A DNA stretch of 15,873 nt, taken from assembly GCA_049517415.1 (NCBI GenBank), contig JBEKSC010000037.1:1-15873 (forward strand), in the 5' to 3' direction. The notes beneath the pieces are model-generated. The model had not been told where the DNA came from. It was given only the letters and a program-made list of their open reading frames with translations, and did not search any database. The first letter of the stretch is position 1. Each line of letters begins with the position of its first letter. Below, piece by piece: positions 2 to 13,622 of the stretch. A program made the position numbers and the translations under genes. The DNA is from Candidatus Bathyarchaeia archaeon (lineage in GTDB: Archaea > Thermoproteota > Bathyarchaeia > 40CM-2-53-6).

Positions 2-931
2 TTAGTTCTCTTCTCAGCTAGTATCCTCAGAGTCAACGCTCAGACCACGACGATCGTTGACCTCCACTATCCTTCCCAAGTTGTGCTGCAGAACGGAGTG
101 GCTCAAGCGATTGTCACGTTTATTGTGGCTTACGGCGGGCTTCCATCGGGTGACGCGATAGTCTTCGCCGTAGTTTCGTTAGGCCCAATCCCAAGCTCTA
201 CGGGTATAGACGGATCGGGCAGCTCGACGCCTGACTCATGTCTGTCCTCGTGGGCCGGACAAAGTTGGCCTGGTAAGGCAGCGTGTGCTGTTGTTCCAAG
301 CTCAAGCTCAGGAACCGAATCCGTCACGTTAACAATCAAATCAGCCGCTTCGCCTCAACAGTACACTCTCGAGGTTATGGCTATTATCGTGGGTCCGTCG
401 GTTCCGTATAGCCCGATCAGCAGTTCAATGAGCCATCAGGTGTTCACGATCACCGTGGTTACAGCAGCCACGGATTGGGCGGTTCTTTCGGTTTCGTTGA
501 GTCCTTCTGCTCCGAATGTTGGTGACCCGGTAACATTCAGTATGGTGGTGACCGCGCTCTCGTCTACAGGATCATTTCCTCAGAGCTTCTCTGCACTTTG
601 CCAGATAGACGGAGTATCCTGTGGTGGTGGGTCCCTCTCCTACCCTGGACCAATGGGTACTCCTTTCACCGTAAGCACGCAAACGCCTTGGATTGCGACG
701 CCTGGTACGCACACATTGACCTGGGGAGTCGCGACGATTCCAGTGGATCTTGACCCGAATAAGAGTAACAATGCGATGAGCAAGAGCTTCACGGTTGCGC
801 CGCAGGTTTCCATATCGTCCACGACCACACCCGAATACCAGAACTATGTGCTGCCACTCATCGCATCTTTCGCATTAGTGATAATCATCCTCGCCAAGAA
901 AACGGGGAATGCGCCACACCAAGTAGTTTAG
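2..931 (+). CDS. Secreted cell-surface protein with CARDB/Ig-like domain and C-terminal membrane anchor (5'-partial)
   Basis: The frame is open from base 2 (LVLFSASILRVNAQTTT..., signal-peptide-like), so the start lies upstream of the window. It is Ser/Thr/Pro-rich, with CARDB-like 'DWAVLSVSLSPSAPNVGDPVTF...PGTHTL...DPNKSNN'. The tail is TPEY + hydrophobic helix + KK, resembling PEF-CTERM sorting signals. Confidence 0.75.
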   Translation, partial: LVLFSASILRVNAQTTTIVDLHYPSQVVLQNGVAQAIVTFIVAYGGLPSGDAIVFAVVSLGPIPSSTGIDGSGSSTPDSCLSSWAGQSWPGKAACAVVPSSSSGTESVTLTIKSAASPQQYTLEVMAIIVGPSVPYSPISSSMSHQVFTITVVTAATDWAVLSVSLSPSAPNVGDPVTFSMVVTALSSTGSFPQSFSALCQIDGVSCGGGSLSYPGPMGTPFTVSTQTPWIATPGTHTLTWGVATIPVDLDPNKSNNAMSKSFTVAPQVSISSTTTPEYQNYVLPLIASFALVIIILAKKTGNAPHQVV

Positions 932-1020
932 GTGTGTGACCGTCCAAAGTTGAACCGTCGTCCGTCGTCGTGCACGTAATTTGTGTGTGTGCGCACCACC
1001 ATACCCACCCACACACAAAA
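930..1020. repeat. Cassette-boundary element A: M1 (tRNA-end-like) + M2 (CGTCGTCCGTCGTCG) + M3 (TTTGTGTGTG) + GCACCACC + inverted M3
   Basis: ggtgtgtgaccgtccaaagttgaacc-gtcgtccgtcgtcg...tttgtgtgtg...gcaccacc...cacacacaaaa, overlapping the stop codon of the upstream gene. Confidence 0.8.
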
Positions 1021-1092
1021 CAATGACGTATGGTAGGGTTGTAAGTCGCCCACAACGAGTATACATCAGTCTGCGGACACTAGGCATCACGA

Positions 1093-2265
1093 GTGGGATC
1101 CGGTACGTCGCTCCTTGTTAAGCCGTTAGACGCAATTGTCGAAGCAGATTTGCAGTCTTTGATTGACAATAAAGTCGCTGAAGCCAAGTCTATCGAATAC
1201 AAATCGCTCTTGCCTGGTCCCACTGATGCTGAGAAAAGGGAATTCCTTTCTGATGTTTCATCGTTTGCTAACACAATAGGGGGGGACATCTTCTACGGAA
1301 TCCTTGAGTCTTCTGGTGTACCTACCGAGCTCAGGGGGATGCAGGTCGAAGACTCTGACGCACTCAAGCTTCGACTTGAAGACATAATGCGACACGGAAT
1401 TCAACCAAGAATAGCTGGCATTGCGTTACACGTCGTGCCCCTGCAATCCTCAGCCAAGGTAGTGATAATTCGTATTCCTAGAAGTTGGGCAGCACCACAT
1501 ATGGTTTCCTTCCAGAACTACTCTAGGTTCTTTGGCCGCAACTCAGCGGGAAAATACCAGCTTGATGTTACTGAAATTAGAGCTGCTTTCCTTCTTTCCG
1601 AGAATGCGTCAGAACGAATACGAGGATTTCGTGCTGATCGATTGGTTCGAATCCGTTCTGGCGATACTCCCGTACCATTGAAAGAGGGCGCCAAAATCGT
1701 ATTTCACATGATCCCACTAGGGGCTCTGGAAAGACCGACTAGCTTGAGTGTAGCTTCCTTGAAAGCAGTAGACTTGCAGCCTATGGCCGTCTCAAGCTGG
1801 AGCTATCGGTTAAATTTCGATGGAGCCCTTGGTTATTCACACCAATCATATCTTCAGGTATTTCGAAATGGTGTGCTAGAATCGGTGGAAGGGCTGCTTC
1901 TAGACGACGGTAAGATTCCATGTATAGCTTACGAGAAGGAACTGCTGGACGTGTTGTCTCAATATTTCTCAATCGGAAAGAGAATTGGAGTCGATCCCCC
2001 TAGTCTGGTGATGCTCAGCTTACTCGGCGTACGAGGATATACTATGGCTACCGGTCAGCCCTTCTCAGGGGAGGATCGGCATCAGATCGATAGACAGGAC
2101 CTTTTGGCGCCGCCCGCAATAATTGAGGATTACCAGTGCGATCCGCCAGAGGTGATGAGGCCCGCATTTGATTCAATCTGGAATGCCTGTGGATATCCTC
2201 GATCATTAAACTACGACAAGTCCGGAAAATGGGTGGGAATAGATAGGGTCAGCTCAACTAGCTGA
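1093..2265 (+). CDS. Schlafen/AlbA_2-domain protein (putative nuclease / nucleic-acid-binding)
   Basis: N-terminal 'EAKSIEYKS...EFLSDVSSFANTIGGDIFYGILE...VVIIRIPRS..APHMV...FFGRNSAG' is the AlbA_2 pattern; 390 aa. Confidence 0.85.
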   Translation: MGSGTSLLVKPLDAIVEADLQSLIDNKVAEAKSIEYKSLLPGPTDAEKREFLSDVSSFANTIGGDIFYGILESSGVPTELRGMQVEDSDALKLRLEDIMRHGIQPRIAGIALHVVPLQSSAKVVIIRIPRSWAAPHMVSFQNYSRFFGRNSAGKYQLDVTEIRAAFLLSENASERIRGFRADRLVRIRSGDTPVPLKEGAKIVFHMIPLGALERPTSLSVASLKAVDLQPMAVSSWSYRLNFDGALGYSHQSYLQVFRNGVLESVEGLLLDDGKIPCIAYEKELLDVLSQYFSIGKRIGVDPPSLVMLSLLGVRGYTMATGQPFSGEDRHQIDRQDLLAPPAIIEDYQCDPPEVMRPAFDSIWNACGYPRSLNYDKSGKWVGIDRVSSTS

Positions 2266-2300
2266 ATCATTGACAGCCTAGTCCTTTTGTTCGTTTCGTT

Positions 2301-2345
2301 TTTAGTGCGTGTGGTACTAATGGTGCGGGCAACCAAATTTGAACC
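2301..2345. repeat. Cassette-boundary element B: M3-N7-M1
   Basis: tttagtgcgtgtg-gtactaa-tggtgcgggcaaccaaatttgaacc, between two convergent stop codons. Confidence 0.8.
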
Positions 2346-2354
2346 GCTGAATCG

Positions 2355-3011
2355 TCAGTTGATCGGCGCGACGACTTTCTCGGCGATGTGAACTTTCGTC
2401 GATAACAATACCGACTTGCTGGTCACGTAACGTAGTCTCGCTCTCTCAAAGAGTGTCTGATATTCGATTGTTGAGTACAATTTCACATGAGCTGGTTCTT
2501 TCTTCTTGGCCAGTCTATCGAACATTCGTGTCATAAGCCCGTCTGCCGTCATGTCGAGGACATAGATTCTCCCGTTGGGCTTCAAGACTCGGTAGACCTC
2601 TCCAAGAACCTTGTCAGGACTGAAGTAATGATGAAACGAATTAGAGCAAATGACAAGGTCAAAGAAGTCATTGTCGAAGGGGAGTTCCTCAGCATTGGCT
2701 TTCCGAAAATGAACGTTGCTGTAACTCGTGGACCCTCCTTCCGCCTTCTCAATCATCTTAGATGAAATATCGACACCATAGAATTCTCCTCGTCCATCAG
2801 CCAAGCTGGCTGCGTAGTGCACAGCCCAACCAGTGCCACAGCCCAAGTCCAGAAAGCGGGGATTCCGGCCGAATTCTAAGAGGGAAAACAGTTTCTTTTG
2901 CATCCATCTGAGGTATCTGGACTCAAAGCTAAAGCGTGTATCAAACCAGCTCTCCGCCCTCAAATCCCACAATTCTTCGTTCAGCTTAGCATATTCATCC
3001 GCCTTTCCCAC
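2355..3011 (-). CDS. Class I SAM-dependent methyltransferase (UbiE/Methyltransf_11-like)
   Basis: Motif I FLDLGCGTG, GVDISSKM, AEELPFDNDFFDLV, EVYRVLKPNG. Confidence 0.92.
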   Translation of the reverse strand: MGKADEYAKLNEELWDLRAESWFDTRFSFESRYLRWMQKKLFSLLEFGRNPRFLDLGCGTGWAVHYAASLADGRGEFYGVDISSKMIEKAEGGSTSYSNVHFRKANAEELPFDNDFFDLVICSNSFHHYFSPDKVLGEVYRVLKPNGRIYVLDMTADGLMTRMFDRLAKKKEPAHVKLYSTIEYQTLFERARLRYVTSKSVLLSTKVHIAEKVVAPIN

Positions 3012-3119
3012 GTCTGGTGTTCCCCACTACACTCTCGCAGTGAGGTGTCTCACATTTACTTCTATTGACCGACCTAGCTCAGAATTCTCGCAAATGCTGG
3101 GAGAAAACGCGCCAGGAAC

Positions 3120-3206
3120 TGGTGTGTGGCGTCAGAATTTGAACCGTCGTCGTCCGTCGTCAAATGTGTGTGTGGATATGCTGGTGCGGGCACCTGAAAT
3201 TGAACC
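3120..3206. repeat. Cassette-boundary element C: M1-M2-M3-N7-M1
   Basis: tggtgtgtggcgtcagaatttgaacc-gtcgtcgtccgtcgtc-aaatgtgtgtgtg-gatatgc-tggtgcgggcacctgaaattgaacc. Confidence 0.85.
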
Positions 3207-3258
3207 GTCATTTTAGAGGCGTTTTGATGCCGACTTCCGGTTAGCCCATATTAGCGGA

Positions 3259-3645
3259 GTGGTTATGGGACTGATGCTGATTTTCTTGGAGATTCCAGTT
3301 ACAATTTACACGCTAAACCATCAACTGATCTACGATTTACTTGGAGAGAGTAGGGGAAGTCTAGGTACGCGGAAGCAATTGACAAGTGACTTGGCTGTTA
3401 GGTACGACAGCGCCAAAATTAGAACAGCTTTCGGACTTGCTGAAATGGTTCAGATAACGTTGATCGTAGCCGAAGATATCACTGAAGGAGTTGGGGCGAG
3501 TCTTATCGTCGATTGGCTGCTCAAGAAACTTAACACGAAGGAAGCCCAAGTAACCAAATTAGAAATCGACAAGGTTGCCGTGGAACTTGACGAAGACGAG
3601 ATCAAGAAAGCCGTGTTGGAGAGAATCACGAAGACAAGCCAGTAA
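3259..3645 (+). CDS. Hypothetical protein
   Basis: 128-aa ORF occupying most of the segment between elements C and D; no family recognised; start codon uncertain. Confidence 0.65.
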   Translation: MVMGLMLIFLEIPVTIYTLNHQLIYDLLGESRGSLGTRKQLTSDLAVRYDSAKIRTAFGLAEMVQITLIVAEDITEGVGASLIVDWLLKKLNTKEAQVTKLEIDKVAVELDEDEIKKAVLERITKTSQ

Positions 3646-3743
3646 AGCCCGTCCGGTCGCTTTGAAACTTGAGTCATTTAGGATACTTAGTCGCTATGAG
3701 AAATATGGCATTTTCAAGCATTGTATAGTCCGTCTGAGTGAGT

Positions 3744-3834
3744 TGGTGCGAACCTAGCAATTTGAATCGTCGTCCGTCGTCGTTCATGTAATTTTGTGTG
3801 TGGTACTAGTGGTGTGAGCACCAGAAATTGAACT
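3744..3834. repeat. Cassette-boundary element D: M1-M2-M3-N7-M1
   Basis: tggtgcgaacctagcaatttgaatc-gtcgtccgtcgtcg...ttttgtgtgtg-gtactag-tggtgtgagcaccagaaattgaact. Confidence 0.85.
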
Positions 3835-3910
3835 CAAAAAACTACGTTAACCTTAATCCTATGAGGTAGGCTCAGATGAGTATGCGCGCTCTGATAAAGA
3901 AGCTCGTCGA

Positions 3911-4588
3911 TTATCTTCCTGCTTTTAGTATCTTTTCTCTTCTCTCTTCTCCTTTCTCCTTCTCTTCTCCCTCTTCTCGCTTCTCTTCTTTGTCCTCTTC
4001 TCGTCTCTTTTCTGTTTTCTCCTTCTCTTGCTTCTTGTCTCTTTTCTCTTGTCGCTCCTCTTCTCTGTCCTCTTTCAGTCTATCTGTTCTTGTCGCTTCT
4101 CTTCTCTCTTCTCCTTTCTCCTTCTCTCCCAGTATCTGTAATCTCTCATTGTAAAAGCGAGAAGCTACTTCTAGAACATCTTCGATTCTTTCGCTCACAA
4201 ATTTACAGTCTTCAAGCGTTTTCACAAAGAAAACAACGCGGTCGGTGCGCCCTTCCTTCTCTACTTCTTCCTTCGCTCTCTCCGTCGCTTGTGCGGTCTT
4301 CGACAGGAGGTCCTGCATGACTTTGATGTACCTATCCTTTTCCTCTTGATGTTGAGTGGCTTCGAAGATAGCCTTGTTCACTACCAGTCTATATTTCCAA
4401 ACCGCTTCTTCAAAGTTTTCATCCTTGACACTTTTCTCCGCCTGCTCAATGAGGATCCCGAGGTCCTCTTTGGATATGGCGGCCATCGGATCTAAAGAGA
4501 GGCGTCTTGCGAGAAAATCATACAACTTTTCATCGTCTCCACATAGCTGCCGCAACCAACTTTCCTCTTCCTTCTCTTTTTCCCCCAT
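3911..4588 (-). CDS. Hypothetical alpha-helical protein with E/K/R-rich C-terminal tail
   Basis: 225-aa ORF, ATG start preceded by GGAGAG. The low-complexity charged tail explains the pyrimidine-rich + strand at ~3920-4130. Confidence 0.75.
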   Translation of the reverse strand: MGEKEKEEESWLRQLCGDDEKLYDFLARRLSLDPMAAISKEDLGILIEQAEKSVKDENFEEAVWKYRLVVNKAIFEATQHQEEKDRYIKVMQDLLSKTAQATERAKEEVEKEGRTDRVVFFVKTLEDCKFVSERIEDVLEVASRFYNERLQILGEKEKGEERREATRTDRLKEDREEERQEKRDKKQEKEKTEKRREEDKEEKREEGEEKEKGEERREKILKAGR

Positions 4589-4660
4589 GAGCAGTCTCTC
4601 CGGTTTATAGCACGAGTCTATTCCTTCTTATCTCTTCTGGGGGATTCCTCTCCAACCATT

Positions 4661-5011
4661 CCTAATGGAGCTAAGGAGAAAATCATTGGAGTGCTGGAGG
4701 CACGGTTCAACGAACAAGTACCCTACAAGGGTGAACGTCTGACGTGGTGTTCGGTGATTTCGGAGGAATGCGATGAGCTAGGCCGCTACTTGGTGGGCAA
4801 GTCTAGAACGATCGACTTCATGGAGCCTTCCCCAACTTTAGAGCGATTCGACAATAGGCGGTTGCGTTCTAAGATTTCCTCATTGAATGCCTCGGAAGCT
4901 AGACGTGTTGGCATTCCGAAACAAAGCCTTCAAGACTTGAAGGTGAAAGTTAGAAGCCCACAACCATTCAAACTACACGATGAGACCATGCGGAAATTGC
5001 TAGCAGTCTAG
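4661..5011 (+). pseudogene. cas1: Casposase (Cas1-solo) C-terminal remnant with HTH-like tail
   Basis: In-frame PNGAKEKIIGVLEARFNEQVPYKGERLTWCSVISEECDELGRYLVGKSRTIDFMEPSPTLERFDNRRLRSKISSL...GIPKQSL...PFKL resembles, from memory, the C-terminus of archaeal casposon Cas1. The N-terminal catalytic region is absent. Confidence 0.7.
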
Positions 5012-5026
5012 ATTCATTTAGCCAAG

Positions 5027-5822
5027 TCAAAGCAGGAGAGTGGCGCTCCTCCATAGACCTTCAAAGATATCCTTCATGATATCATAACTCTCGATGCGCA
5101 GCAGATATGTGGGCTTCATACCCGCATGCCTTATTGATTGGCCAAATACCCAACATGAGTCATCCACAAATGCGAATCTGTCATGACAATCGGTGGTTTT
5201 CCTCACTTCAAAATTGACTTCGGGTTTCTGTTTGAATTTCTGAGCTACCGTGACGAAGTTTGAGCTCGGACTCTTGGTGAGTATCCTAATGCTTACACCA
5301 TGCTGAACTTTGGTCCAAGTAGAGGTTCAGCACGTCCTCGCTTGCATATGCATCTGCGATCGCAAGCTCATTCGCAGCAGTTTGAACGAGTCTTAGGAAA
5401 TCCTTGTAGAAATCGTAAGGCGATGCTTTGGAGTAAATTCTTTCTTCAAAGGTGAACCCCCTAACAGCTGCCACACTTCTCGCATAGATTTCAGGAGGAA
5501 CCTTCATTCTCATATCCTTCTTGCTTCGGTTCAGGATATCAAGAACATACTTCGAGATCGGGGGATAGTCCGGTCTGTCGAATTCTGTTGTGTACACGGA
5601 ATACTCTATGATTGCGTCAATTAGCGAATTCATGACACGCCGGTAACCTATCGGGTAATTCCGTATTTCTGGAACAAGGTAACGTCCGACATTGTAAACA
5701 AAACTGGCGAGCGCACGCTGTCGGGCTGTTGTACCATATCTGTTGCGTTGGCGTGCCATTCGTAGTCGTAAGAGTTGCTGTCTGAATTCCGCATAACTTT
5801 GCTTGCCCTTTTTGAGAGACAT
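5027..5822 (-). pseudogene. Frameshifted gene with C-terminal PLD-like (HDRF-type) nuclease domain
   Basis: ORF 5822-5286 (...IADAYASEDVLNLYLD) continues after one extra base near 5312 as KVQHGVSIRILT...CHDRFAFVDDSCWVFGQSIRHAG...LWRSATLLL*, stop at 5027-5029. Confidence 0.75.
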
Positions 5823-5865
5823 GGTTCACACGAGTGACCTTACGTAGAGAGCTGGATGCCTTTGA

Positions 5866-5919
5866 ATGTGTGTGCACCACCAGACCAATCTCTAAGAACA
5901 AGGATGGTCACACACAAAA
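5866..5919. repeat. Cassette-boundary element E: M3 + GCACCACC + inverted M3
   Basis: atgtgtgtgcaccacc...ggtcacacacaaaa, same layout as the right half of element A. Confidence 0.7.
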
Positions 5920-5924
5920 GCTCT

Positions 5925-6689
5925 TCAGATCAAATTCTCAACAAACTCAAGTAGAACTTTCATGACATCGAGCTCTCTAGCAAGAACTTCCTGACAGTAT
6001 GGTGCAAGTTCGCGTTTCTTTTCATAAGTGAACGATGTCTCGCTAGGATTATCTGGAAGCATGAACAGGTTGATCTCAGTCGCCATACTCGGAGTATGAC
6101 TGAATCGTACTCGTGGACGGATTGCCGAGTGATGAGTAACAAAGTTTCTGTATTGCCGAAATTCGTAAATCCATCCTGTGTCGCAATCTTTCTTTAGTTC
6201 GGCGATCAGTGATCCTTCGAAGGGGCTTCTTGAGCTAGCTAGAAAATTCAATACAGTTGTGAAATACACGTTGCGTTTGTCGATCGCAGTTTCAACCAAC
6301 ATGGCGATTATTCCGCCGACAATGTCTAAAGCAGAATATGCAAAATAAAAGAAAAGATCTTCATAAAAGATGAAATCTTCCGGAATAGGGTCCATCAGGC
6401 CACGCATGGAGGCATCAATAGATCCCGTGTATTTTCCATATACTTTCAAAATATATTCCAGACCTCTAGCCGCCCAGCGCAGCTTGTAAAGGACTGATTC
6501 CATTCTGTAGGCAAAATCTCTTAGGTCGACAACAATTTCGTATCTTGTCTTGAAGCTCTGCTCAAAGTGGTTACTCGATCGATCCTTAACCTTGAAGGCT
6601 ATGCTGTTGTATGGTGTGAGCATTTCATCCCATTTTGTATGAATTATCTCTGGAAGATCGAGCCTTGTCTTGGGTGTTGAGTCGACCAA
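5925..6689 (-). CDS. HEPN-domain protein (Cthe_2314-like), putative RNase
   Basis: Helical 254-aa protein with 'FFYFAYSALDIVG' and the Rx4H motif 'YRNFVTHH'. Confidence 0.7.
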   Translation of the reverse strand: MVDSTPKTRLDLPEIIHTKWDEMLTPYNSIAFKVKDRSSNHFEQSFKTRYEIVVDLRDFAYRMESVLYKLRWAARGLEYILKVYGKYTGSIDASMRGLMDPIPEDFIFYEDLFFYFAYSALDIVGGIIAMLVETAIDKRNVYFTTVLNFLASSRSPFEGSLIAELKKDCDTGWIYEFRQYRNFVTHHSAIRPRVRFSHTPSMATEINLFMLPDNPSETSFTYEKKRELAPYCQEVLARELDVMKVLLEFVENLI

Positions 6690-6810
6690 TCATGAAGCCT
6701 CTGCATCTTGCGGTGGTATGACTTGATCAATTGAGCCTATCGGAGAGAGTCAAACGAAAATATCTATCGCTGACCTTGACCGCCTAAATCATGGAGATCA
6801 TGGAAAGTCG

Positions 6811-6878
6811 CTTTGTGTGTGACTCCGTTGGTGCAGGCAAGCGAATTTGAACCGGCCGTTCGTAGTTTGCGTGTGTGG
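6811..6878. repeat. Cassette-boundary element F: M3-N7-M1 followed by degenerate M2-M3
   Basis: ctttgtgtgtg-actccgt-tggtgcaggcaagcgaatttgaacc-ggccgttcgtag-tttgcgtgtgtgg. Confidence 0.8.
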
Positions 6879-6899
6879 TGTGTGTGCTGCGTGTAGGTG

Positions 6900-6973
6900 T
6901 GGGAGAGAGAGTATAGGGGAATAGAAGAATATGAAAAGAATGGGGCGTTAGCTAGGGCAGAAGAGAAGGGGGG
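6900..6973 (-). terminator. Pyrimidine-rich tract on the minus strand, possible archaeal terminator/trailer
   Basis: The + strand is strongly purine-rich here (gggagagagag...gaagagaaggggg), directly downstream of the minus-strand CCA at 6980. Confidence 0.35.
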
Positions 6974-6978
6974 TATCA

Positions 6979-6993
6979 ATGGTGCGGCCGCCG
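6979..6993 (-). repeat. 15-bp exact copy of the tRNA-Gly 3' end (att/TSD-like direct repeat of 13442-13456)
   Basis: atggtgcggccgccg occurs at 6979-6993 and 13442-13456. Confidence 0.85.
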
Positions 6994-7295
6994 AGAACCA
7001 TGATTCAAACGTGGTTCCCACGGTTCGGCCTAGGTCACAAATCTCAGACAATCATAGAATAGTAACTGCAGACATTTTTGCTTTGTTGTGAATTCAAATC
7101 CCGCCGAATCCGATCCATTTTCACTCCGAGATTTCGTCGGAGACATCGGAACGCTGGCCTGACCCGTCCAGTCCTTCTCAGTTCCGACGGCACAGTGATC
7201 TGGATCAACGCAAACGGATACTCAGAAGGAACAGCATCCGAGCTGCTCCCACGACGATTAGTCGTGAAACAAGTACCCCTCTAGGATGATGCCGC
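6980..7295 (-). ncRNA. Candidate structured RNA ending in a tRNA-like acceptor strand and CCA
   Basis: About six abutting helices in an intergenic region. It starts GCGGC and ends CGGCCGC-A-CCA, and the last hairpin has the T-loop-like loop TTTGAAT. Confidence 0.45.
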
Positions 7296-7382
7296 AAAGT
7301 ATCTGCGAGAAGTTCCTTGATTCATAGATCGGAATGGCGCTACTCTGTTGTACGAGGTTTTCGTTGCGAGAGCTTTAGAATA

Positions 7383-7907
7383 TTAGCCCGTGCGTGCTGT
7401 TTCGATCCCGACTTCGTTCCGGCGCATGAAACCCAGTGTCCAAGGCGAGTTGTACCTCATCAAAAACGGTTCACCAACCGTGGCAATTCCACTCTCCTTC
7501 AGCGTTGGGAGAAGTCTCGATTTGACTTCATTTACGGATTTGTCCCTAGCATAGCCCTTGAACCGTATCACTGCCAATCTCCTTGCTGGTATCCTCTCGA
7601 TCCTTATGCGGGACTCCAAGGGCTCAGGCACTTCTTCCAGCTTGAATTTAAGAGGCATCACGAATGAGAACGAGTTTGCACTCGAAATCACTGGTGCTGT
7701 CATCTCGATCTTCTCGGAGGTTATCACTGGGGCGGTCATCGGAATCTTCTTCCGCGTCCGGTTCTCACCAGAGATGTAGCTGAACAATAGTCTGAAGGCC
7801 GAGTTGTCCCCTTGGCCTGTAACCGTGGCCAACGTCAGCTCCGGGTAATCTCGAAGCTCTACCTCTCCGATGTGCCCTGCCACATCGTAACCAGCTATCT
7901 CGACCAT
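7383..7907 (-). CDS. SOUL family heme-binding protein
   Basis: 'ELRDYPEL...AFRLLFSYISGEN...KIPMTAPV...FVMP...RYNSPWT..FMRRNEV'. ATG at 7907 with GGAGG immediately upstream is preferred over the 7928 start. Confidence 0.93.
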   Translation of the reverse strand: MVEIAGYDVAGHIGEVELRDYPELTLATVTGQGDNSAFRLLFSYISGENRTRKKIPMTAPVITSEKIEMTAPVISSANSFSFVMPLKFKLEEVPEPLESRIRIERIPARRLAVIRFKGYARDKSVNEVKSRLLPTLKESGIATVGEPFLMRYNSPWTLGFMRRNEVGIETARTG

Positions 7908-8137
7908 GCCTCCAATGATGTGGCACAACTATTTCCGTTTGCTTATCCATGAGGTATTGAGAATTCAGTTGGATATCGCAGCTGGAATGCCTTCTGCCAA
8001 GATAGTTGCGATATTGCAGCTGGCAGCACCCTGCCATATTCGATGACGAACCAGACTCACCAAGCAAAGAGCTTCAGAACTCGACCATCGAAAGCAAATA
8101 GCTCAACCGCTTCACTAGCTCGCGCGAGAAGAGGACA

Positions 8138-9079
8138 ATGATCCACGTGCGCTTAGGATATGCGTGCGTTAATCTCACTCTTGGACCAGAAGGTCGGACC
8201 AGCCGTACGTGTCGTCTGCAAAATGCAACACCTCTTCATCTGAAGGAACTGGCACTGGCAAACCTCGCAGGTCTACACAAAGTCTTGAACTGGAATCTTT
8301 CACACGACATTATGCTATTCCGAATCTCATCCGAAATAATTCCACTCGCTTCTCATCCCAAAGCAAGATGGCCTTGGCGACAAGAACTCAGGCAGCAAAT
8401 CTCAACGCTCGGGGATTTTGCAAAGGAACATTCAATGCGACTATCAATGCACCCCGGCCAATACACTGTCTTGAATTCCCCGCGAACGGATGTTGCTGCT
8501 GCGGCAGCGGCTGAGTTATCCTATCATGCTGACTTTCTTGACGCAATGGGCTTGGCCATTGAGCATAAGATCATCCTACACGTTGGAGGGGTCTATGGCG
8601 ATCGACAGGCGTCATCACAGCGATTTACTGAGAGCTTCCGTAATCTCCCTGAGAATGTCAAGAATCGCTTAGTCATAGAAAACGATGAACACAATTACGG
8701 CGTAGACGACGTGCTTCACCTATGTGATTACCTCAGTATTCCGATGGTCTTTGATTACTTGCATTATCAAGCATACAGCAGGCGCCCCCTAAAACACGGC
8801 TTGATGGACCGAGTGTGTGGTACATGGTCGCAAATTGACGGCCTGCCGGAAATGCACTATTCAACGCAGAGGCATCGATCGAGAATTGGGGCCCACGCTG
8901 ACATGATCAATCCGAGAGACTTCAAGCGTTTCTTGAAGATTCTTCCAAAATGTGACATTGATGTTGTTCTTGAAGCTAAGGGTAAGGATATGGCGCTTCT
9001 GAAACTGCAGGAAGACCTGCATTCTGTAACGGGGGTGCTCAAGGTCACCGCTGAAGGTGACATCGTCGTCGCAAAATAA
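8138..9079 (+). CDS. uvsE: UV DNA damage endonuclease (UvsE/UvdE)
   Basis: RLGYAC, FRISS, RLSMHPGQYTVLNSP, LHVGG, RLVIENDE, VFDYLH, HYS, AHAD, LEAKGKD. Confidence 0.95.
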   Translation: MIHVRLGYACVNLTLGPEGRTSRTCRLQNATPLHLKELALANLAGLHKVLNWNLSHDIMLFRISSEIIPLASHPKARWPWRQELRQQISTLGDFAKEHSMRLSMHPGQYTVLNSPRTDVAAAAAAELSYHADFLDAMGLAIEHKIILHVGGVYGDRQASSQRFTESFRNLPENVKNRLVIENDEHNYGVDDVLHLCDYLSIPMVFDYLHYQAYSRRPLKHGLMDRVCGTWSQIDGLPEMHYSTQRHRSRIGAHADMINPRDFKRFLKILPKCDIDVVLEAKGKDMALLKLQEDLHSVTGVLKVTAEGDIVVAK

Positions 9080-9124
9080 ATAGTCAATATCTTGAGCGAG
9101 TTCAAGTGGAAATGCATGATCCAG

Positions 9125-10321
9125 TCAATAATGTAGCGGATCTGTTTTCATGAACTCTCTCAAGACTGTTGTCGCATACGCTGCCTTGGGCAGACTGAAT
9201 TGGACATCGACCAAGTCCCCATCATCCGTCGACTGATCATGTCGCAAGCTTACTTCTGGGTCAACATCAAGGAATGCTGCACGGGTCGACCCTTCAACGC
9301 CAAGTTCTGGTATCTTGCGTACTTGAAAGTCTTGCAACGTGATCCCTTCTTCATTAAGAAGAGACTTTTCGATCTCTCCAAGCATGCCGGTCGAAAACTC
9401 ACTTTGAGAACCGAGCAGGCGGATTGACATATTTCCAATGTCAATCTCGCGTTGAAGCAGTCGGCTTAGATTCTTGTTGAACAGGTAGGCTTGAAATGCG
9501 TGCACCAGCAGTCTCCGCAGAGTCGTTGGGAGCCGTCTAAGTGCTCCTGCATAGTCGAGCGGTCTACTTTGAAGTGCGACAAGCATCGTTCGTTCATATG
9601 TCAGTCTTCGAGGGAAAACCTTCAATGCTCCGCTAACATCATGGGTTGCATCATAGTAATTTCTCGCCTCTCTACACGGAGGACTTTCGGTTTCGTATGG
9701 AAATCCGAGGTACCTGTTTACGGCACCCTCAAGGTTGCCTTGGACGATCATCCGACCTACGATGTGGGTATTTGGCCTGGTAGTGCCGAATCTTTGGTAG
9801 CCAAAGTAGTTGGGGACTCCAACACAACTCAGCTCCTTCTTGATGTTGTTCAACGTTTTCGCCAGTTCCTTTCCGTTCAGCTTGGTCTTTCTGATTGTCA
9901 CGAGGAACCGATTTCCACTTAGGGATCCCAGGGTGATCCTAGCTTGACATCTATCGAAATCGTAGAGGGAGATTCCGGGCAAGCGGACAGTTCGTAATCG
10001 TTGCTCCTCCACATGCCAGGCAGAGATTCTTTGTCTGGTGACCGCGCGTCTATCCTTGTTGCCGGCGAACCCGAATCTCTTGTAAGAGACTCCAGTTGCC
10101 CTCGCAATTTCCCTCAAGGCGGTTATGCTGTCCCAGTTTCTCTTTTCCAAAGTGAAGTGCGTGTGCTCTCCATCAGGAGCTGATCGACTGTCGTCTTGTA
10201 TTTCTTCGACGGTGAAGTCCTCGATCCGCTCTCGGATTTTGCCACCTATGCCTTCTTGGCTGGTTGAGAAATATTCGAGGCCGAGGTCATTGTCAAGTTG
10301 ATATGGGCTTCGAGTTGGCAA
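9125..10321 (-). CDS. truD: tRNA pseudouridine(13) synthase
   Basis: EDFTVEE, FAGNKDRRAVTRQ (catalytic Asp), GNRF, VPNYFGYQRFG, AFQAYLFN, FSLPKAAYATTVLRE. Confidence 0.95.
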   Translation of the reverse strand: MPTRSPYQLDNDLGLEYFSTSQEGIGGKIRERIEDFTVEEIQDDSRSAPDGEHTHFTLEKRNWDSITALREIARATGVSYKRFGFAGNKDRRAVTRQRISAWHVEEQRLRTVRLPGISLYDFDRCQARITLGSLSGNRFLVTIRKTKLNGKELAKTLNNIKKELSCVGVPNYFGYQRFGTTRPNTHIVGRMIVQGNLEGAVNRYLGFPYETESPPCREARNYYDATHDVSGALKVFPRRLTYERTMLVALQSRPLDYAGALRRLPTTLRRLLVHAFQAYLFNKNLSRLLQREIDIGNMSIRLLGSQSEFSTGMLGEIEKSLLNEEGITLQDFQVRKIPELGVEGSTRAAFLDVDPEVSLRHDQSTDDGDLVDVQFSLPKAAYATTVLREFMKTDPLHY

Positions 10322-10336
10322 GTGGCTTGCTAATCC

Positions 10337-10780
10337 TTAGATGGATTCGCGCATCCGTTTGGTGTAGTCCCACATGAAGAAGCTTTTTGGGGTTATCTCA
10401 ATTGCGACTTCTAGCCGTTCTTTCTGGAGCAGTCTTCTTGCTAGTTGGGATGTTGTTCCGTGCAGGTAGCGTTCGAGAAGTTGTCTGAGTATTGCTCCGC
10501 CGAGTTGTGGTTTCAGTGTTGCGACGCCTTGTCCCCGTACGCCTATGTACGGCGGATTGTCGGTTGAAACTTCGAATGCGCAGTTCGGGTGTTTTGCTAG
10601 GTAGCTGATGACTTTGGCGGAGTTTGTTGAGGCGCAACAGAGCTTCTGTCCGGAACGCACATACCAGAGTGATAGAATGACCGGCCATCCTGAAGTTGAG
10701 GTGCAAGCCAAACGTAGCGGACCATGATGCTCCTCGAGGAATTGAATCATCTTCGACGTTAGCGTACTTTTCATCCTCAC
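10337..10780 (-). CDS. Pyridoxamine 5'-phosphate oxidase-like flavin-binding protein
   Basis: 'LRLACTSTSGWPVILSLWY...SAKVISYL...CAFEV...GVRGQGVA...ITP....WDY', split-barrel pattern; start may be the ATG at 10774. Confidence 0.85.
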   Translation of the reverse strand: MRMKSTLTSKMIQFLEEHHGPLRLACTSTSGWPVILSLWYVRSGQKLCCASTNSAKVISYLAKHPNCAFEVSTDNPPYIGVRGQGVATLKPQLGGAILRQLLERYLHGTTSQLARRLLQKERLEVAIEITPKSFFMWDYTKRMRESI

Positions 10781-10879
10781 TCGATAGCATGATTCAGAAT
10801 CTCAGTAATATGCTCATAGTGGCAACGGTTTTGAGTTCTGAAACAATTCGAACCATCGAGCCTCCGCCATTGATCCTCC

Positions 10880-11395
10880 ATGCATGTCGAAGTTCTTAGT
10901 AACGGGGAAAGACTTCGTGCGATGGACGTATTCAAGTCGAGAGAGCTTGATATCTTGATTCTTGCTGAAGTTGTCAGAGGTCTGGCGTCGGGTCTTGTTG
11001 CGACGGCAGGTATGTCACTAATTGAGTTTCCAATTTGGCGCAAGTGGGGAATGGAAGGCGTAATGGAATGGCATATGAATCAATCTCTAATGGCTCGGCT
11101 TCTAGGGCGACCTGCTCAATACCTGGTCAGTCAAGGATTGATTCTACATTTTCTTCATGGCGGACTGGCAGGGATCGTCTTCGTTCTCATGCTTCCAATC
11201 GTTCCGAGAATCCTCATCATATATGCTGGCGTGGCATTTGGGTTGATTCTCTGGATTATCTCACTGTTGATCATGAGACCCGTTACTGGCGTCGGATTGG
11301 GCGGTCACCCTTTGCGATGGTTGGCGCTTATTGTAGCTTTGGTAGGGCACCTTTTCTACGGCATTTTGCTTGCGTTTCTGGTGATTTCACTATGA
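10880..11395 (+). CDS. Small multi-pass membrane protein
   Basis: About four hydrophobic helices with 'GLVATAGMS', 'LHFLHG' and 'GHLFYG'. The stop overlaps the next ATG (ATGA). The true start is probably somewhat downstream. Confidence 0.8.
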   Translation: MHVEVLSNGERLRAMDVFKSRELDILILAEVVRGLASGLVATAGMSLIEFPIWRKWGMEGVMEWHMNQSLMARLLGRPAQYLVSQGLILHFLHGGLAGIVFVLMLPIVPRILIIYAGVAFGLILWIISLLIMRPVTGVGLGGHPLRWLALIVALVGHLFYGILLAFLVISL

Positions 11396-12288
11396 CCACC
11401 CGGAAGCTACTCGCGGTCACAGGAGCTACTGGCTTCATCGGCCGAAACCTGGTGAACAGCCTTCTCGCCGAAGGGCTCGAAGTACGAGCTCTGGTTAGGC
11501 ATCCGGAGGAATACGATGTGCAATTAGACGCAAGGCGAGCGGACGTGCTAGACCTGAGGTCATTGTCTATCGCCCTTGAGGGTGTTCACACCGCCTACTA
11601 TCTCGTTCACTCAATGAAGAGCAAGGGCCGAGACTTTGCCGAGACAGATCGATTAGGGGCAGAGAATTTTCTGAAGGCGGCTGAGAGCGCAAGCATCAGG
11701 CGAATTATCTACCTGGGCGGTCTCGGAGAGGCAGGCCCCGACCTCTCTGAACATTTGAGAAGCCGAGCTGAAGTGGGCAGAATCCTTCAGTCAGGCCATG
11801 TTCAGGCAACTGTTTTACGAGCAGCGATAATCATAGGCCCCGGAAGTGCTTCTTGGGACATGCTAAGACAGCTTGCAGACAGACTGCCAGTCATGACAAC
11901 TCCCAGATGGGTTGAAACAAGATGCCAACCCATTGCGCTTAGAGATGTTTTGGGTTATCTTATCGGTTGCGCCGAAGCCGAAGTAACTGCCGGTGGGACT
12001 TTTGACATCGGCGGTCCTGATATCCTAACCTATCGTCAGATGTTGATGCAGGTAGCTGAGGCTCTTGGGAAGCATGTGCGAATATATGGGATACCAGTCC
12101 TGTCGCCTCGACTTTCATCGTACTGGGTAGATCTAGTGACTGATGTGCCCTCAAGCATCGCAAGGCCGCTCATAGATGGACTTAGAAGTGAGGTTATCTG
12201 CCGTGACGACAGAATCAAATCTCTAGTCCCCATTCACCTCACCCATTTTCGTGATGCCGTTTCACTTGCGCTTGATGGAAAGATTTGA
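11392..12288 (+). CDS. NAD(P)-binding atypical SDR / epimerase (YbjT-like)
   Basis: VTGATGFIG, AYYLVHSM, IIYLGGLG, SEHLRSR, LRAAIIIG, QPIALRDV. The start is placed at ATG 11392, coupled to the upstream stop, not at 11035. Confidence 0.92.
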   Translation: MTTRKLLAVTGATGFIGRNLVNSLLAEGLEVRALVRHPEEYDVQLDARRADVLDLRSLSIALEGVHTAYYLVHSMKSKGRDFAETDRLGAENFLKAAESASIRRIIYLGGLGEAGPDLSEHLRSRAEVGRILQSGHVQATVLRAAIIIGPGSASWDMLRQLADRLPVMTTPRWVETRCQPIALRDVLGYLIGCAEAEVTAGGTFDIGGPDILTYRQMLMQVAEALGKHVRIYGIPVLSPRLSSYWVDLVTDVPSSIARPLIDGLRSEVICRDDRIKSLVPIHLTHFRDAVSLALDGKI

Positions 12289-13280
12289 AGATCCACGGGA
12301 GCGACCAGAAGATGAAGAGCTTTCCACGACCGAATGTTGTCCTGAGTAATTGCCTCGAACTTTCTGCATGCAGGTACAACGGGCAAGTAATTCATGATGA
12401 TTTTGTCAAGAAGCTGAGTAATCATGTGAATTACATTCCAGTCTGCCCTGAGGTATCCATCGGCCTCGGGGTTCCGAGGTTCCCTATCCGATTGGTCTCT
12501 CGAGAAAAGGACATCCGATTGGTTCAGCCTGCAACCAACATTGATCTAACTGACAAGATGCACAACTTCTGCAGTGATTTCCTATCGAGTTTGAAAGACG
12601 TCGACGGCTTCATACTGAAATTCAGATCACCTTCATGCGGACTCAAAGATGTCCGATTCTATCCGAAGGCTGAAAAATCGGCCGCGTTAGGTAAGACCTC
12701 TGGGCTATTCGGTGGCAAGGTCCTCGAAATGCTTCCTGGGCTTGCAGTCGAAGACGAGGGCAGGTTGAGAAGTCTGAAGATACGAGAATATTTCCTAACT
12801 AAACTCTTCACCCTAGCCAGTTTACGTGAAGTAAGAAGAAAAGGCAAGATTTCTGACCTTGCCAACTTTCACGCTGACAACAAGTTCCTCCTTATGTCGT
12901 ACAACCAGAAGGAGTTGAGAGTCCTTGGGAACATAGCTGCGAACAGAGATGACAAAGAGCTCCATCAAACACTCACCGAGTATGAAAATCACCTGAGAGA
13001 ATCAATGGCGGCTCCAGCCAGACGCGCTTCGAACATCAATGTCTTCATGCACATTTTCGGATATTTCTCAAGGCAGCTCTCCTCGAACGAAAAGCAATTC
13101 TTCTTCGAGACGCTGCAACTCTACCGTGACGGCAGAGTTCCATTCACATCTGCTTTGGGATTACTCAAAGGTTGGGCTATCCGGTTTCAAGACGAGTACT
13201 TAACCCAACAGACGTTCTTTGAACCTTTCCCGGTTGACCTTGTAGAATGGAGCGACGCAGGAAGACCCATAGAACTCTAG
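12285..13280 (+). CDS. DUF523 (TudS-like Fe-S desulfidase) + DUF1722 fusion, YbgA/RudS-like
   Basis: SNCL, CRYNG, PVCPEV.IGLGVPR, SPSCG Cys motifs; C-terminal 'FHADNKFLLMSY...HIFGYF...YLTQQTFFEPFP'; start may be the ATG at 12312. Confidence 0.9.
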   Translation: MKIHGSDQKMKSFPRPNVVLSNCLELSACRYNGQVIHDDFVKKLSNHVNYIPVCPEVSIGLGVPRFPIRLVSREKDIRLVQPATNIDLTDKMHNFCSDFLSSLKDVDGFILKFRSPSCGLKDVRFYPKAEKSAALGKTSGLFGGKVLEMLPGLAVEDEGRLRSLKIREYFLTKLFTLASLREVRRKGKISDLANFHADNKFLLMSYNQKELRVLGNIAANRDDKELHQTLTEYENHLRESMAAPARRASNINVFMHIFGYFSRQLSSNEKQFFFETLQLYRDGRVPFTSALGLLKGWAIRFQDEYLTQQTFFEPFPVDLVEWSDAGRPIEL

Positions 13281-13442
13281 AGAGCGACGAATGGATTGTA
13301 GTGTCTGCTGGGGAAGGTAGATGGGAGTTATTCTCTTCGGTTTTGTGCGAGCACGCATGTGGAAGTGGTTCTGCCAAGCGTTATAGAACGGAACAGGTTC
13401 TCAACACTGCAGCTTGCTAATGTTTAGACATTAATGTCTAGA

Positions 13443-13622
13443 TGGTGCGGCCGCCGGGATTCGGACCCGGGTTTCCTCGTTGCTGCTATCGCAGCTTTGA
13501 GGCTTGGGAAGCCCCCGTCATAGACCAGGCTATCCTTCCAACCTTTTCAGGCTGGGGAACTGGACCACGGCCTAATGGAGCAATCCGTGCTCACGCACTC
13601 AGAGTCCAGCCACGACGACCGC
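13443..13622 (-). tRNA. tRNA-Gly(CCC) with three introns (13567-13614, 13530-13559, 13473-13496) and encoded CCA
   Basis: Removing 48+30+24 nt gives a 78-nt cloverleaf: GCGGTCG TG GTC CAGCCTGGTCTAT GAC G GGGGC TTCCCAA GCCTC AAAC CCGGG TCCGAAT CCCGG CGGCCGC A CCA. Confidence 0.85.

Follow-up and report, generated by a model that had tools for sequence, protein, structure and literature searches.

Casposons have been proposed as the source of the CRISPR adaptation machinery, and are known as rare, single elements which carry a PolB gene. Here we describe a motif, M1 (TGGTG-N13-TTGAAYY), which occurs repeatedly in a 15,873-nucleotide stretch of DNA from Candidatus Bathyarchaeia archaeon (assembly GCA_049517415.1, contig JBEKSC010000037.1; the whole stretch is hereafter the window), and compare it with the targets of casposases. 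The minimal target of the Aciduliprofundum boonei casposase consists of an 18-bp T-loop segment and the target-site duplication (TSD) (PMC5137440), and the motif in its target is TCAAATC, situated 9-15 bp upstream (-15 to -9; PMC6614799). The TSD of the Methanosarcina mazei casposon is 14 bp in length and begins with CGCA, with bases 12-17 upstream being required (PMC6977970). Tandem re-use of one target and the use of intergenic look-alike targets have also been published for casposons (PMC4779613, PMC6563490), and PolB has been described as universal in family 2 casposons (PMC9939771). Since the anatomy of M1 equals that of these mapped targets, M1 is very likely the target of a casposase (Cas1-solo) resembling those of family 2.

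Exact pattern matching over the window distinguished five M1 copies, at positions 2321, 3182, 3744, 3810 and 6829, all on a single strand, where 0.01 would be expected by chance and five were reached in 0/200 shuffles. An earlier note on this DNA had reported these copies in their common orientation, spacing variants of 16 nt at 3120 and 17 nt at 930, and the common register and orientation of M1 and the 3' 25 nt of the local tRNA-Gly, and all of these observations were confirmed. The tRNA-Gly could not be upheld as the donor, with the window copies showing 7-10 mismatches to it and 5-8 to the best among 32 distinct tRNA 3' ends of the host genome (G000; G001 onwards denote other genomes and L numbers fetched loci). 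No donor was found among these 32 ends, none of the 24 occupied mimics in the host genome has fewer than three mismatches to any tRNA end, and no copy matches any tRNA perfectly, as independent insertions at different tRNAs would entail. Structural mimicry of a T-arm also finds no support. Of 159 mimics, 14 % carry a C at position 61, a pairing position of the T-stem, and all five T-stem pairs are present in 8/167 occupied sites, seven of which are real tRNAs. The conserved ends and variable middle of M1, in turn, were evident in a set of 164 sites selected by CGCACCA and a terminal repeat alone, without reference to the M1 end blocks, so as to avoid circularity. In these sites, fixation is 83-90 % at -16 to -12 and at -10, and -3 is a G in 90 %, while at -8, -7 and -5 conservation is at most 39 %, and divergence is thus uneven across positions. 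Because the T-stem is lost, and given this pattern of fixed and variable positions, M1 is best read as a sequence motif around a fixed-length spacer. The note was right in seeing a site maintained for recognition by a protein, in register with a tRNA, as opposed to decayed attachment site (att) copies, whereas its description as half-sites is not supported, as the two blocks do not form an inverted repeat. They correspond instead, as the published targets agree in detail, to the casposase leader and the first half of the TSD. On this reading the functional unit is larger than 25 nt, and comprises an 18-bp leader, a 14-bp duplicated segment and a CACACAC element end.

A junction search recovered 110 rows in the host genome versus seven in the reversed genome. 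Extending this to 4.18 Mb, made up of G000 and fetched loci selected for having sites or Cas1, yielded 520 sites versus 21 in the control. Three joints recur, in tRNA sense: leader-CGCACCA-N7-CACACAC (leader-distal, P), GTGTGTG-CGCACCA (leader-proximal, D), and P and D together. The first CACAC is located at +15 in 114/165 exact leader sites, with other offsets in 18 and none in 33. A 36-nt junction pattern is matched in 18/31 genomes, and in 15/18 of the other members of the genus, with no match in the reversed control. Duplication of the 14-bp segment was assessed through its seven variable nucleotides at those 151 P sites which have a D site on the same strand no more than 30 kb away. These match the downstream partner exactly at 30/151 sites, compared with averages of 5.5 (global) and 9.0 (within-genome) and a maximum of 20 over 2000 shuffles. 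Six of the resulting 30 exact-duplication units contain a full Cas1 gene, two a fragment and 22 none. Tips reading CACACAC or CCGCC face inward at both ends of the duplication-bounded units, and are shorter and less perfect than published terminal inverted repeats. Real tRNA ends are likewise occupied at +15 (seven rows in four genomes: G004, G011, G013 and G015); in the G011 orthologue of the window tRNA-Gly, the repeat at +15 is followed by two stacked ends with M1s. Furthermore, identical 14-mers occur in runs of three to four between inserts (G000 C3; G017 C1 and C4; G014 C1 and C3). Together, the genomes provide 159 natural occupied targets (140 distinct), which can serve directly as a mutational map of the specificity of the casposase. 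Some arrays contain the same leader and 14-bp segment twice with different inserts (G018:C2:871089 and 871705; G000:C39:283 and 4450). Facing M1 pairs with just 8-10-nt TG tips between 14-bp segments were observed in G017 (C4:642059-642120 and C1 near 294947-294982), as if bare end fragments had integrated or remained. Three viral contigs (L122, L123 and L124) also carry a target-plus-end junction, with a tyrosine-integrase-like gene near one of these.

M1 itself is found within the element ends. Under a strict match, 94/534 ends contain an inward-facing M1 and seven an outward-facing one, with 93/94 of the inward copies located 30-59 nt from the tip, while a profile count gave 141 inward and 13 outward among 522 ends, with a peak at 35-54 nt. 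The window cassette at 3165-3802 (638 bp: end, weak M1, gene, M1) shares 97.6 % identity with a cassette in another species (G004 C15), with the identity breaking at the repeat tip. This tip forms a P joint in the window and a D joint in G004, at another target and in the opposite orientation, and M1(3182) of the shared cassette holds a different insert in G004. Because the identity stops at the tip and the insert at M1(3182) differs, the tip is the mobile boundary and M1 moves with the cassette. M1s without an adjoining recognisable tip make up 92/159 of the occupied mimics; the TATA-like motif which precedes some of these unlinked M1s (18/92 versus 2/67) derives partly from one homologous site family, and was not accepted as a promoter.

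The host genome encodes two full-length Cas1-solo proteins and three fragments, all within M1 clusters, one of the fragments being located in the window (4661-5011, plus strand; 39 % identity over 106 aa, E 2e-23). This casposase gene remnant retains the C-terminal part with the helix-turn-helix (HTH) region, without the catalytic domain. The Cas1-solo proteins (404-410 aa; PF01867, E 5e-52) have 6OPM as their best solved relative (E 7e-71, residues 9-404), followed by CRISPR Cas1 proteins (E 3e-25 and weaker). The alignment to 6OPM reaches residue 404 of 410, and thus appears to cover the C-terminal HTH extension. The motifs EGR, FLH/FFH and YDL(Q/E)EPF, which we take to be the catalytic motifs of Cas1, are kept in 8/8 full-length proteins. 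Five of the six loci with the closest Cas1 relatives are Bathyarchaeia records. Seven of ten close full-length Cas1 genes are situated between exact duplications, when the G004 C45 unit with CCGCC tips is counted; the other three are at a contig end, without a partner in the fetched DNA, or rearranged. The Cas1-bearing elements are 7-17 kb in size, compared to a median innermost unit of 1.2 kb for the Cas1-less cassettes. Among the 31 genomes, twelve have both junctions and Cas1, six junctions alone, five Cas1 alone and eight neither, these genomes being kin and partly incomplete.

The gene content of the Cas1 units departs from that of described casposons. PolB was not found among 87/109 open reading frames (ORFs) from eight Cas1 units (the 22 short, overlapping or duplicate Cas1 ORFs were unscanned), and the four PolB genes of G000 are all located outside Cas1 units. 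An HNH domain occurs in 1/8 units, so that the conserved HNH and HTH core of casposons is absent. The shared core consists instead of a small winged-HTH-like protein, an ATPase-like protein and two small proteins. One core protein of 109-130 aa (L117:14846-15172 and its homologues), encoded beside the ATPase-like gene, contains DxD, GxH and GDD motifs. Its nearest named Atlas cluster is AEP-like (0.89), with the nearest clusters being mostly viral, and these primase-like motifs are offered as a lead only, towards a replication module other than PolB through which the elements might be self-synthesising. Neither a tyrosine-family integrase, a reverse transcriptase nor cas2 was found among the 87 proteins. 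The cargo of several units (L039-L041 and L037) includes defence-like genes (AIPR, TIR, HerA, Mrr-N, DndB-like and DNA methylases), and, in G002, a metabolic block with an aldehyde ferredoxin oxidoreductase and a permease. A second tip family (CCGCCGCC / CGCCCCC) is accompanied by a separate Cas1 subgroup, the members of which share 76 % identity with each other and 57-60 % with the CACAC group, and has the same M1 target. It occurs at L041:8079-19058, L044:10591-17749, and in G000 at C9 near 21025 and C39 near 5163, and hybrid units with one tip of each family exist. In the nearly complete genomes G016 and G018, numerous ends and targets are interspersed with metabolic genes, with no Cas1 match to the query used, and represent orphan arrays.

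The system therefore functions like the target system of family 2 casposons, yet lacks PolB and the conserved core genes in the scanned units. As in the M. mazei elements (MetMaz; 6OPM), there is a Cas1-solo with a C-terminal HTH region which aligns over its full length, a 14-bp TSD starting with CGCA at the tRNA 3' end, a required upstream motif, insertion in both orientations, tandem target re-use and intergenic look-alike targets. Unlike in M. mazei, where the tips read ...TATATCCC, they consist here of (CA)n or CCGCC, the TSD takes in the encoded CCA, dozens of sites occur per genome rather than one to three, and there are natural Cas1-less cassettes, targets inside elements and flanks most of which have probably been re-paired. 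AciBoo-C1 of A. boonei similarly has an 18-bp T-loop leader followed by the TSD, with TCAAATC at -15 to -9, the same motif and offset as in the M1 block. It differs in being a single PolB-bearing element in tRNA-Pro with a 15-bp TSD starting with CC, and the available part of its description reports neither arrays nor internal targets. Parallels also exist with CRISPR leader-repeat arrays (Cas1-Cas2), where a leader motif sets the insertion point and a repeat is duplicated with each insertion, and runs of three to four identical 14-mers here separate inserts in like manner. The inserts are, however, kilobase gene cassettes with repeat ends, the repeats are 14 bp where CRISPR arrays have 25-50 nt and short spacers, the leaders are many and mobile, and the scanned units contain no cas2 or effector genes. 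In integrons and composite transposons, likewise, one- to three-gene cassettes accrete at recombination sites and genes between two ends are captured. They differ from the present system, which has a Cas1-fold enzyme, target duplication and terminal repeats, with no attC hairpins or IntI. A literature search with little coverage of subscription papers listed nothing on casposons in Bathyarchaeia, on casposon cassettes which naturally lack Cas1 or on targets situated inside casposon ends. The absence of PolB, the many Cas1-less cassettes and the M1 built into cassettes set this system apart from published casposons.

A mechanism can be proposed on this basis. The casposase would recognise TCAAAT at -15 to -10 and CGCA at +1 to +4, the 3' ends of the element (...GTGTGTG) would be joined to both strands 14 bp apart, and gap filling would duplicate CGCACCA and the following 7 nt. 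The middle of M1 would be free to drift because it serves as a spacer of fixed length. Cas1-bearing elements would supply the enzyme to Cas1-less cassettes, implying catalysis by this Cas1 and its action in trans. With an inward M1 located 30-55 nt inside many tips, or behind the gene in other cassettes, each insertion would bring fresh landing pads in which later elements could nest. Any two facing tips might then be moved together, stripping their partner ends, capturing the intervening genes and leaving ends stacked, as seen at 2313, 3174 and 3802. The anatomy of the target, the 14-bp register, the duplications, the role of the tip as mobile boundary, the link to Cas1 and the presence of M1 inside ends are all evident from the sequences, whereas catalysis by this Cas1, its action in trans and the re-pairing of ends are inferred. 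This full account, with nesting and the re-pairing of ends, is considered likely, albeit held less firmly than the identity of M1 as a casposase target.

Several observations weigh against this account. The arginine pair which reads CGCA in the M. mazei casposase aligns with His-Gln/Asn here, and 6/18 junction-bearing genomes, two of them nearly complete, have no Cas1 match. Just 94/534 ends (strict) or 141/522 (profile) bear M1. Occupancy of end-linked leaders speaks for the account, falling from 43/63 for a perfect core to 12/25 with one change, 2/17 with more changes and 0/20 with deviating spacing, but occupancy and motif quality could both track age. The last 7 nt at M1(3182) show five differences to those in G004 despite the 97.6 % identical flank. 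The 126 innermost units comprise 53 D-P, 54 P-P (two leader-distal flanks) and 19 D-D (two leader-proximal flanks), proportions which equal random pairing of flanks (p 0.32). Exact duplications bound only 7/53 D-P innermost units, versus 2.2 % for random pairs, and no unit in the window has one; the window AlbA cassette is P-P, and the ends at 2313, 3174 and 3802 are without partners of their own. As the flanks pair as if at random, single-step insertion alone cannot account for the arrays. Nested ends may later have moved in new pairs, with the inner flanks recording different events.

The differing 7-mers suggest an alternative, in which circles retaining one 14-bp segment between the tips re-enter by exchange at CGCA, so that the last 7 nt may arrive with the element. 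This involves the same enzyme with another chemistry, resembles the coupling sequences of transposons and could act alongside plain duplication. Beyond the difference at the near-identical M1(3182) between G000 and G004, it is favoured by the recurrence of a few 7-mers between species (CTAGACC in 33 and TTAGACC in 32 of 402), and by the consensus-like 7-mers of occupied tRNAs (median score 5.2 over eight rows, one of which is a mimic) relative to empty ones (-5.2 over fifteen rows). A circular intermediate which carries its target has also been proposed for M. mazei (Gehlert 2023; PMC10359463). However, one element end at different leaders almost always shows a different 7-mer, the same leader in one genome retains its 7-mer under different inserts (0-1 mismatch; C39, G013 and G017 pairs), rare 7-mers are duplicated exactly, and the 7-mer consensus is also explicable by target preference. 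Exchange through circles is thus considered unlikely, if still a serious contender. Internal M1 copies could, alternatively, serve chiefly as a subterminal grip site for the casposase, with landing-pad use a by-product. The fixed orientation and distance of these copies (141 inward and 13 outward, peaking at 35-54 nt) and the presence of M1 in both ends of 5/30 exact-duplication units would fit such a role. But 17/30 of these units moved cleanly with M1 in neither end, and an internal M1 is therefore unnecessary for movement; with the many occupied mimics not beside a recognisable tip, this leaves a grip site improbable. The earlier note had also named tyrosine integrases, next to casposases, as candidate enzymes, and only the latter are supported by the data. 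M1 as an att site or half-site pair, at which such an integrase inserts circular cassettes through a 7-bp CGCACCA overlap, would account for the unmatched flanks without extra assumptions, and the host does possess tyrosine recombinases, one of which adjoins a Cas1 fragment on C9. Set against this, three host integrases match 0/30 exact-duplication units, 0/87 Cas1-unit proteins match the integrase family, the M1 blocks lack inverted-repeat symmetry, the 7-mer tracks the target more than the element, and the same end is found in both orientations, so that a tyrosine integrase is highly improbable. Least credible of all is a function of M1 as RNA, with a tRNA-like 3' end which receives CCA, undergoes processing or primes reverse transcription. 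The terminal CCA in tRNA register (94-97 % kept, at positions used in the search) might point to this, but the T-stem is lost, the acceptor partner strand is missing, no reverse transcriptase occurs among the 87 proteins and the DNA junctions are at a constant +15.

Under the casposase target reading, a broader proposal may be ventured, more tentatively and at somewhat less than even likelihood. The system could represent Cas1-run, integron-like gene capture, in which selection maintains the tRNA-mimic acceptor sites that cassettes bring with them. The casposase would bring any two ends into new pairs, perhaps exchanging the duplicated segment as well. Genes of the host and of defence systems would thereby be collected, nested and reshuffled at dozens of genomic places, in arrays which outlast loss of the enzyme. 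If true, this would constitute an extant intermediate between casposons and CRISPR arrays, with a leader-repeat unit which is itself mobile. In this genus of archaea, abundant in peat and sediment, targets and Cas1-less cassettes form a genome-wide network which a single casposase lineage appears to serve. Because the inserts of the leader-repeat arrays are the size of genes, the transition from casposons to CRISPR becomes open to testing, as does excision, a step so far unsolved. Furthermore, an integrase which is site-specific for a 32-bp target and needs only short ends, with 0.6-17 kb of cargo, may be a useful tool.

In the window, M1 copies at 2321, 3182, 3810 and 6829 are occupied, while the empty ones, at 930, 3120 and 3744, show damage. 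The 17-nt variant (930-956, minus strand), which has no terminal repeat at +15, is located within an element end, and is followed by element-end sequence with a GTCGTC-rich subterminal motif and a tip ending in GTGTGTG (957-991, plus strand), joined directly to CGCACCA as a D junction. A 14-bp target segment, CGCACCACCATACC (992-1005, plus strand), separates this end from the tip which starts the AlbA cassette (1006-1020, plus strand). The cargo of the latter is a Schlafen/AlbA_2 domain protein of 390 aa (1093-2265, plus strand; PF04326, E 8e-11), and its other tip (2304-2313, minus strand) is at +15 of M1(2321). The occupied target here (2314-2345, minus strand; score 41.0 of 41.8) comprises M1 at 2321-2345, the leader at 2328-2345 and the 14-bp segment at 2314-2327. 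Next are a gene for a class I S-adenosylmethionine methyltransferase of 218 aa (2355-3011, minus strand), the empty 16-nt variant within an element end (3120-3145, minus strand), and an end with subterminal motif and tip (3146-3174, minus strand) at +15 of M1(3182). That occupied target (3175-3206, minus strand; M1 3182-3206) belongs to the cassette shared with G004, where the insert and last 7 nt differ. The cassette encodes a 128-aa protein without a Pfam family (3259-3645, plus strand), and a weak M1 with 15-nt spacing (3744-3768, minus strand; score 19.5), empty here and in G004, is situated inside the end at 3769-3802 (minus strand), at the tip of which (3802) identity to G004 ends exactly. 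This end abuts the occupied target of M1 3810-3834 (3803-3834, minus strand). A 225-aa protein with a charged C-terminus (3911-4588, minus strand) has a homologue in G003 (82 % at the DNA level), which is flanked there by end-like motifs; a pyrimidine-rich low-complexity repeat at 3900-4160 encodes the E/K/R-rich tail of the window protein.

Beyond the Cas1 remnant, a terminal repeat tip and the 14-bp segment TGCACCACCAGACC form a D junction (5867-5886, plus strand). This segment (5873-5886) has two mismatches to that at 992-1005, and the two could bound one composite, a pairing which is only suggestive, as 11 % of sites lie within one mismatch of the last 7 nt of the 992-1005 segment by chance. 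The HEPN cassette starts with a tip at 5909-5921 (plus strand), which matches 6809-6821 in inverted orientation and has a decayed flank. It encodes a Cthe_2314-like HEPN protein of 254 aa (5925-6689, minus strand; E 2.6e-4, under the Pfam curated cut-off), and its second tip (6809-6821, minus strand) is at +15 of M1(6829). This occupied target (6822-6853, minus strand; M1 6829-6853) lies within a decayed element end which bears it (6854-6877, minus strand). The cassette cluster is no artefact of this assembly, as contigs from four public DNA runs keep the window order in long pieces (800-3964 in one and 4098-13472 in another), though these runs may be its source. Joints in the run contigs were dropped as evidence of excision, having short sides and fitting other repeat copies.

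A clean comparison of empty and filled states at the window locus is not available, as UvdE, used as synteny anchor, is matched in only 1/22 other genomes of the genus. At 6979-6993 (minus strand), the terminal 15 bp of tRNA-Gly are repeated exactly. This copy has no TCAAAT leader and is not an M1, but is likely the att of a separate island. It ends a 119-bp segment (6972-7090) which is 91-95 % identical in G004, G014 and G017, and which in G004 and G017 is followed by nearly the bases which come after tRNA-Gly here (13442-13456). This juxtaposition suggests that 6980-13443 (SOUL, UvdE, TruD, epimerase and YbgA) is an att-bounded island, which would have displaced the cassette array 6.5 kb from tRNA-Gly. 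No integrase was found inside it. ARAGORN and Rfam scans of the window reported no tRNA or RNA family, and the tRNA at 13443-13596 (minus strand) was assigned by hand as tRNA-Gly(CCC), on the basis of its acceptor GCGGCCG/CGGCCGC, anticodon CCC and three introns. The 3' end of this tRNA represents a natural target which is unoccupied in the window and occupied at +15 in G011, where the exons of the orthologue are conserved and the introns changed. One intron interrupts the acceptor stem after position 3, and the T-loop reads TCCGAAT.

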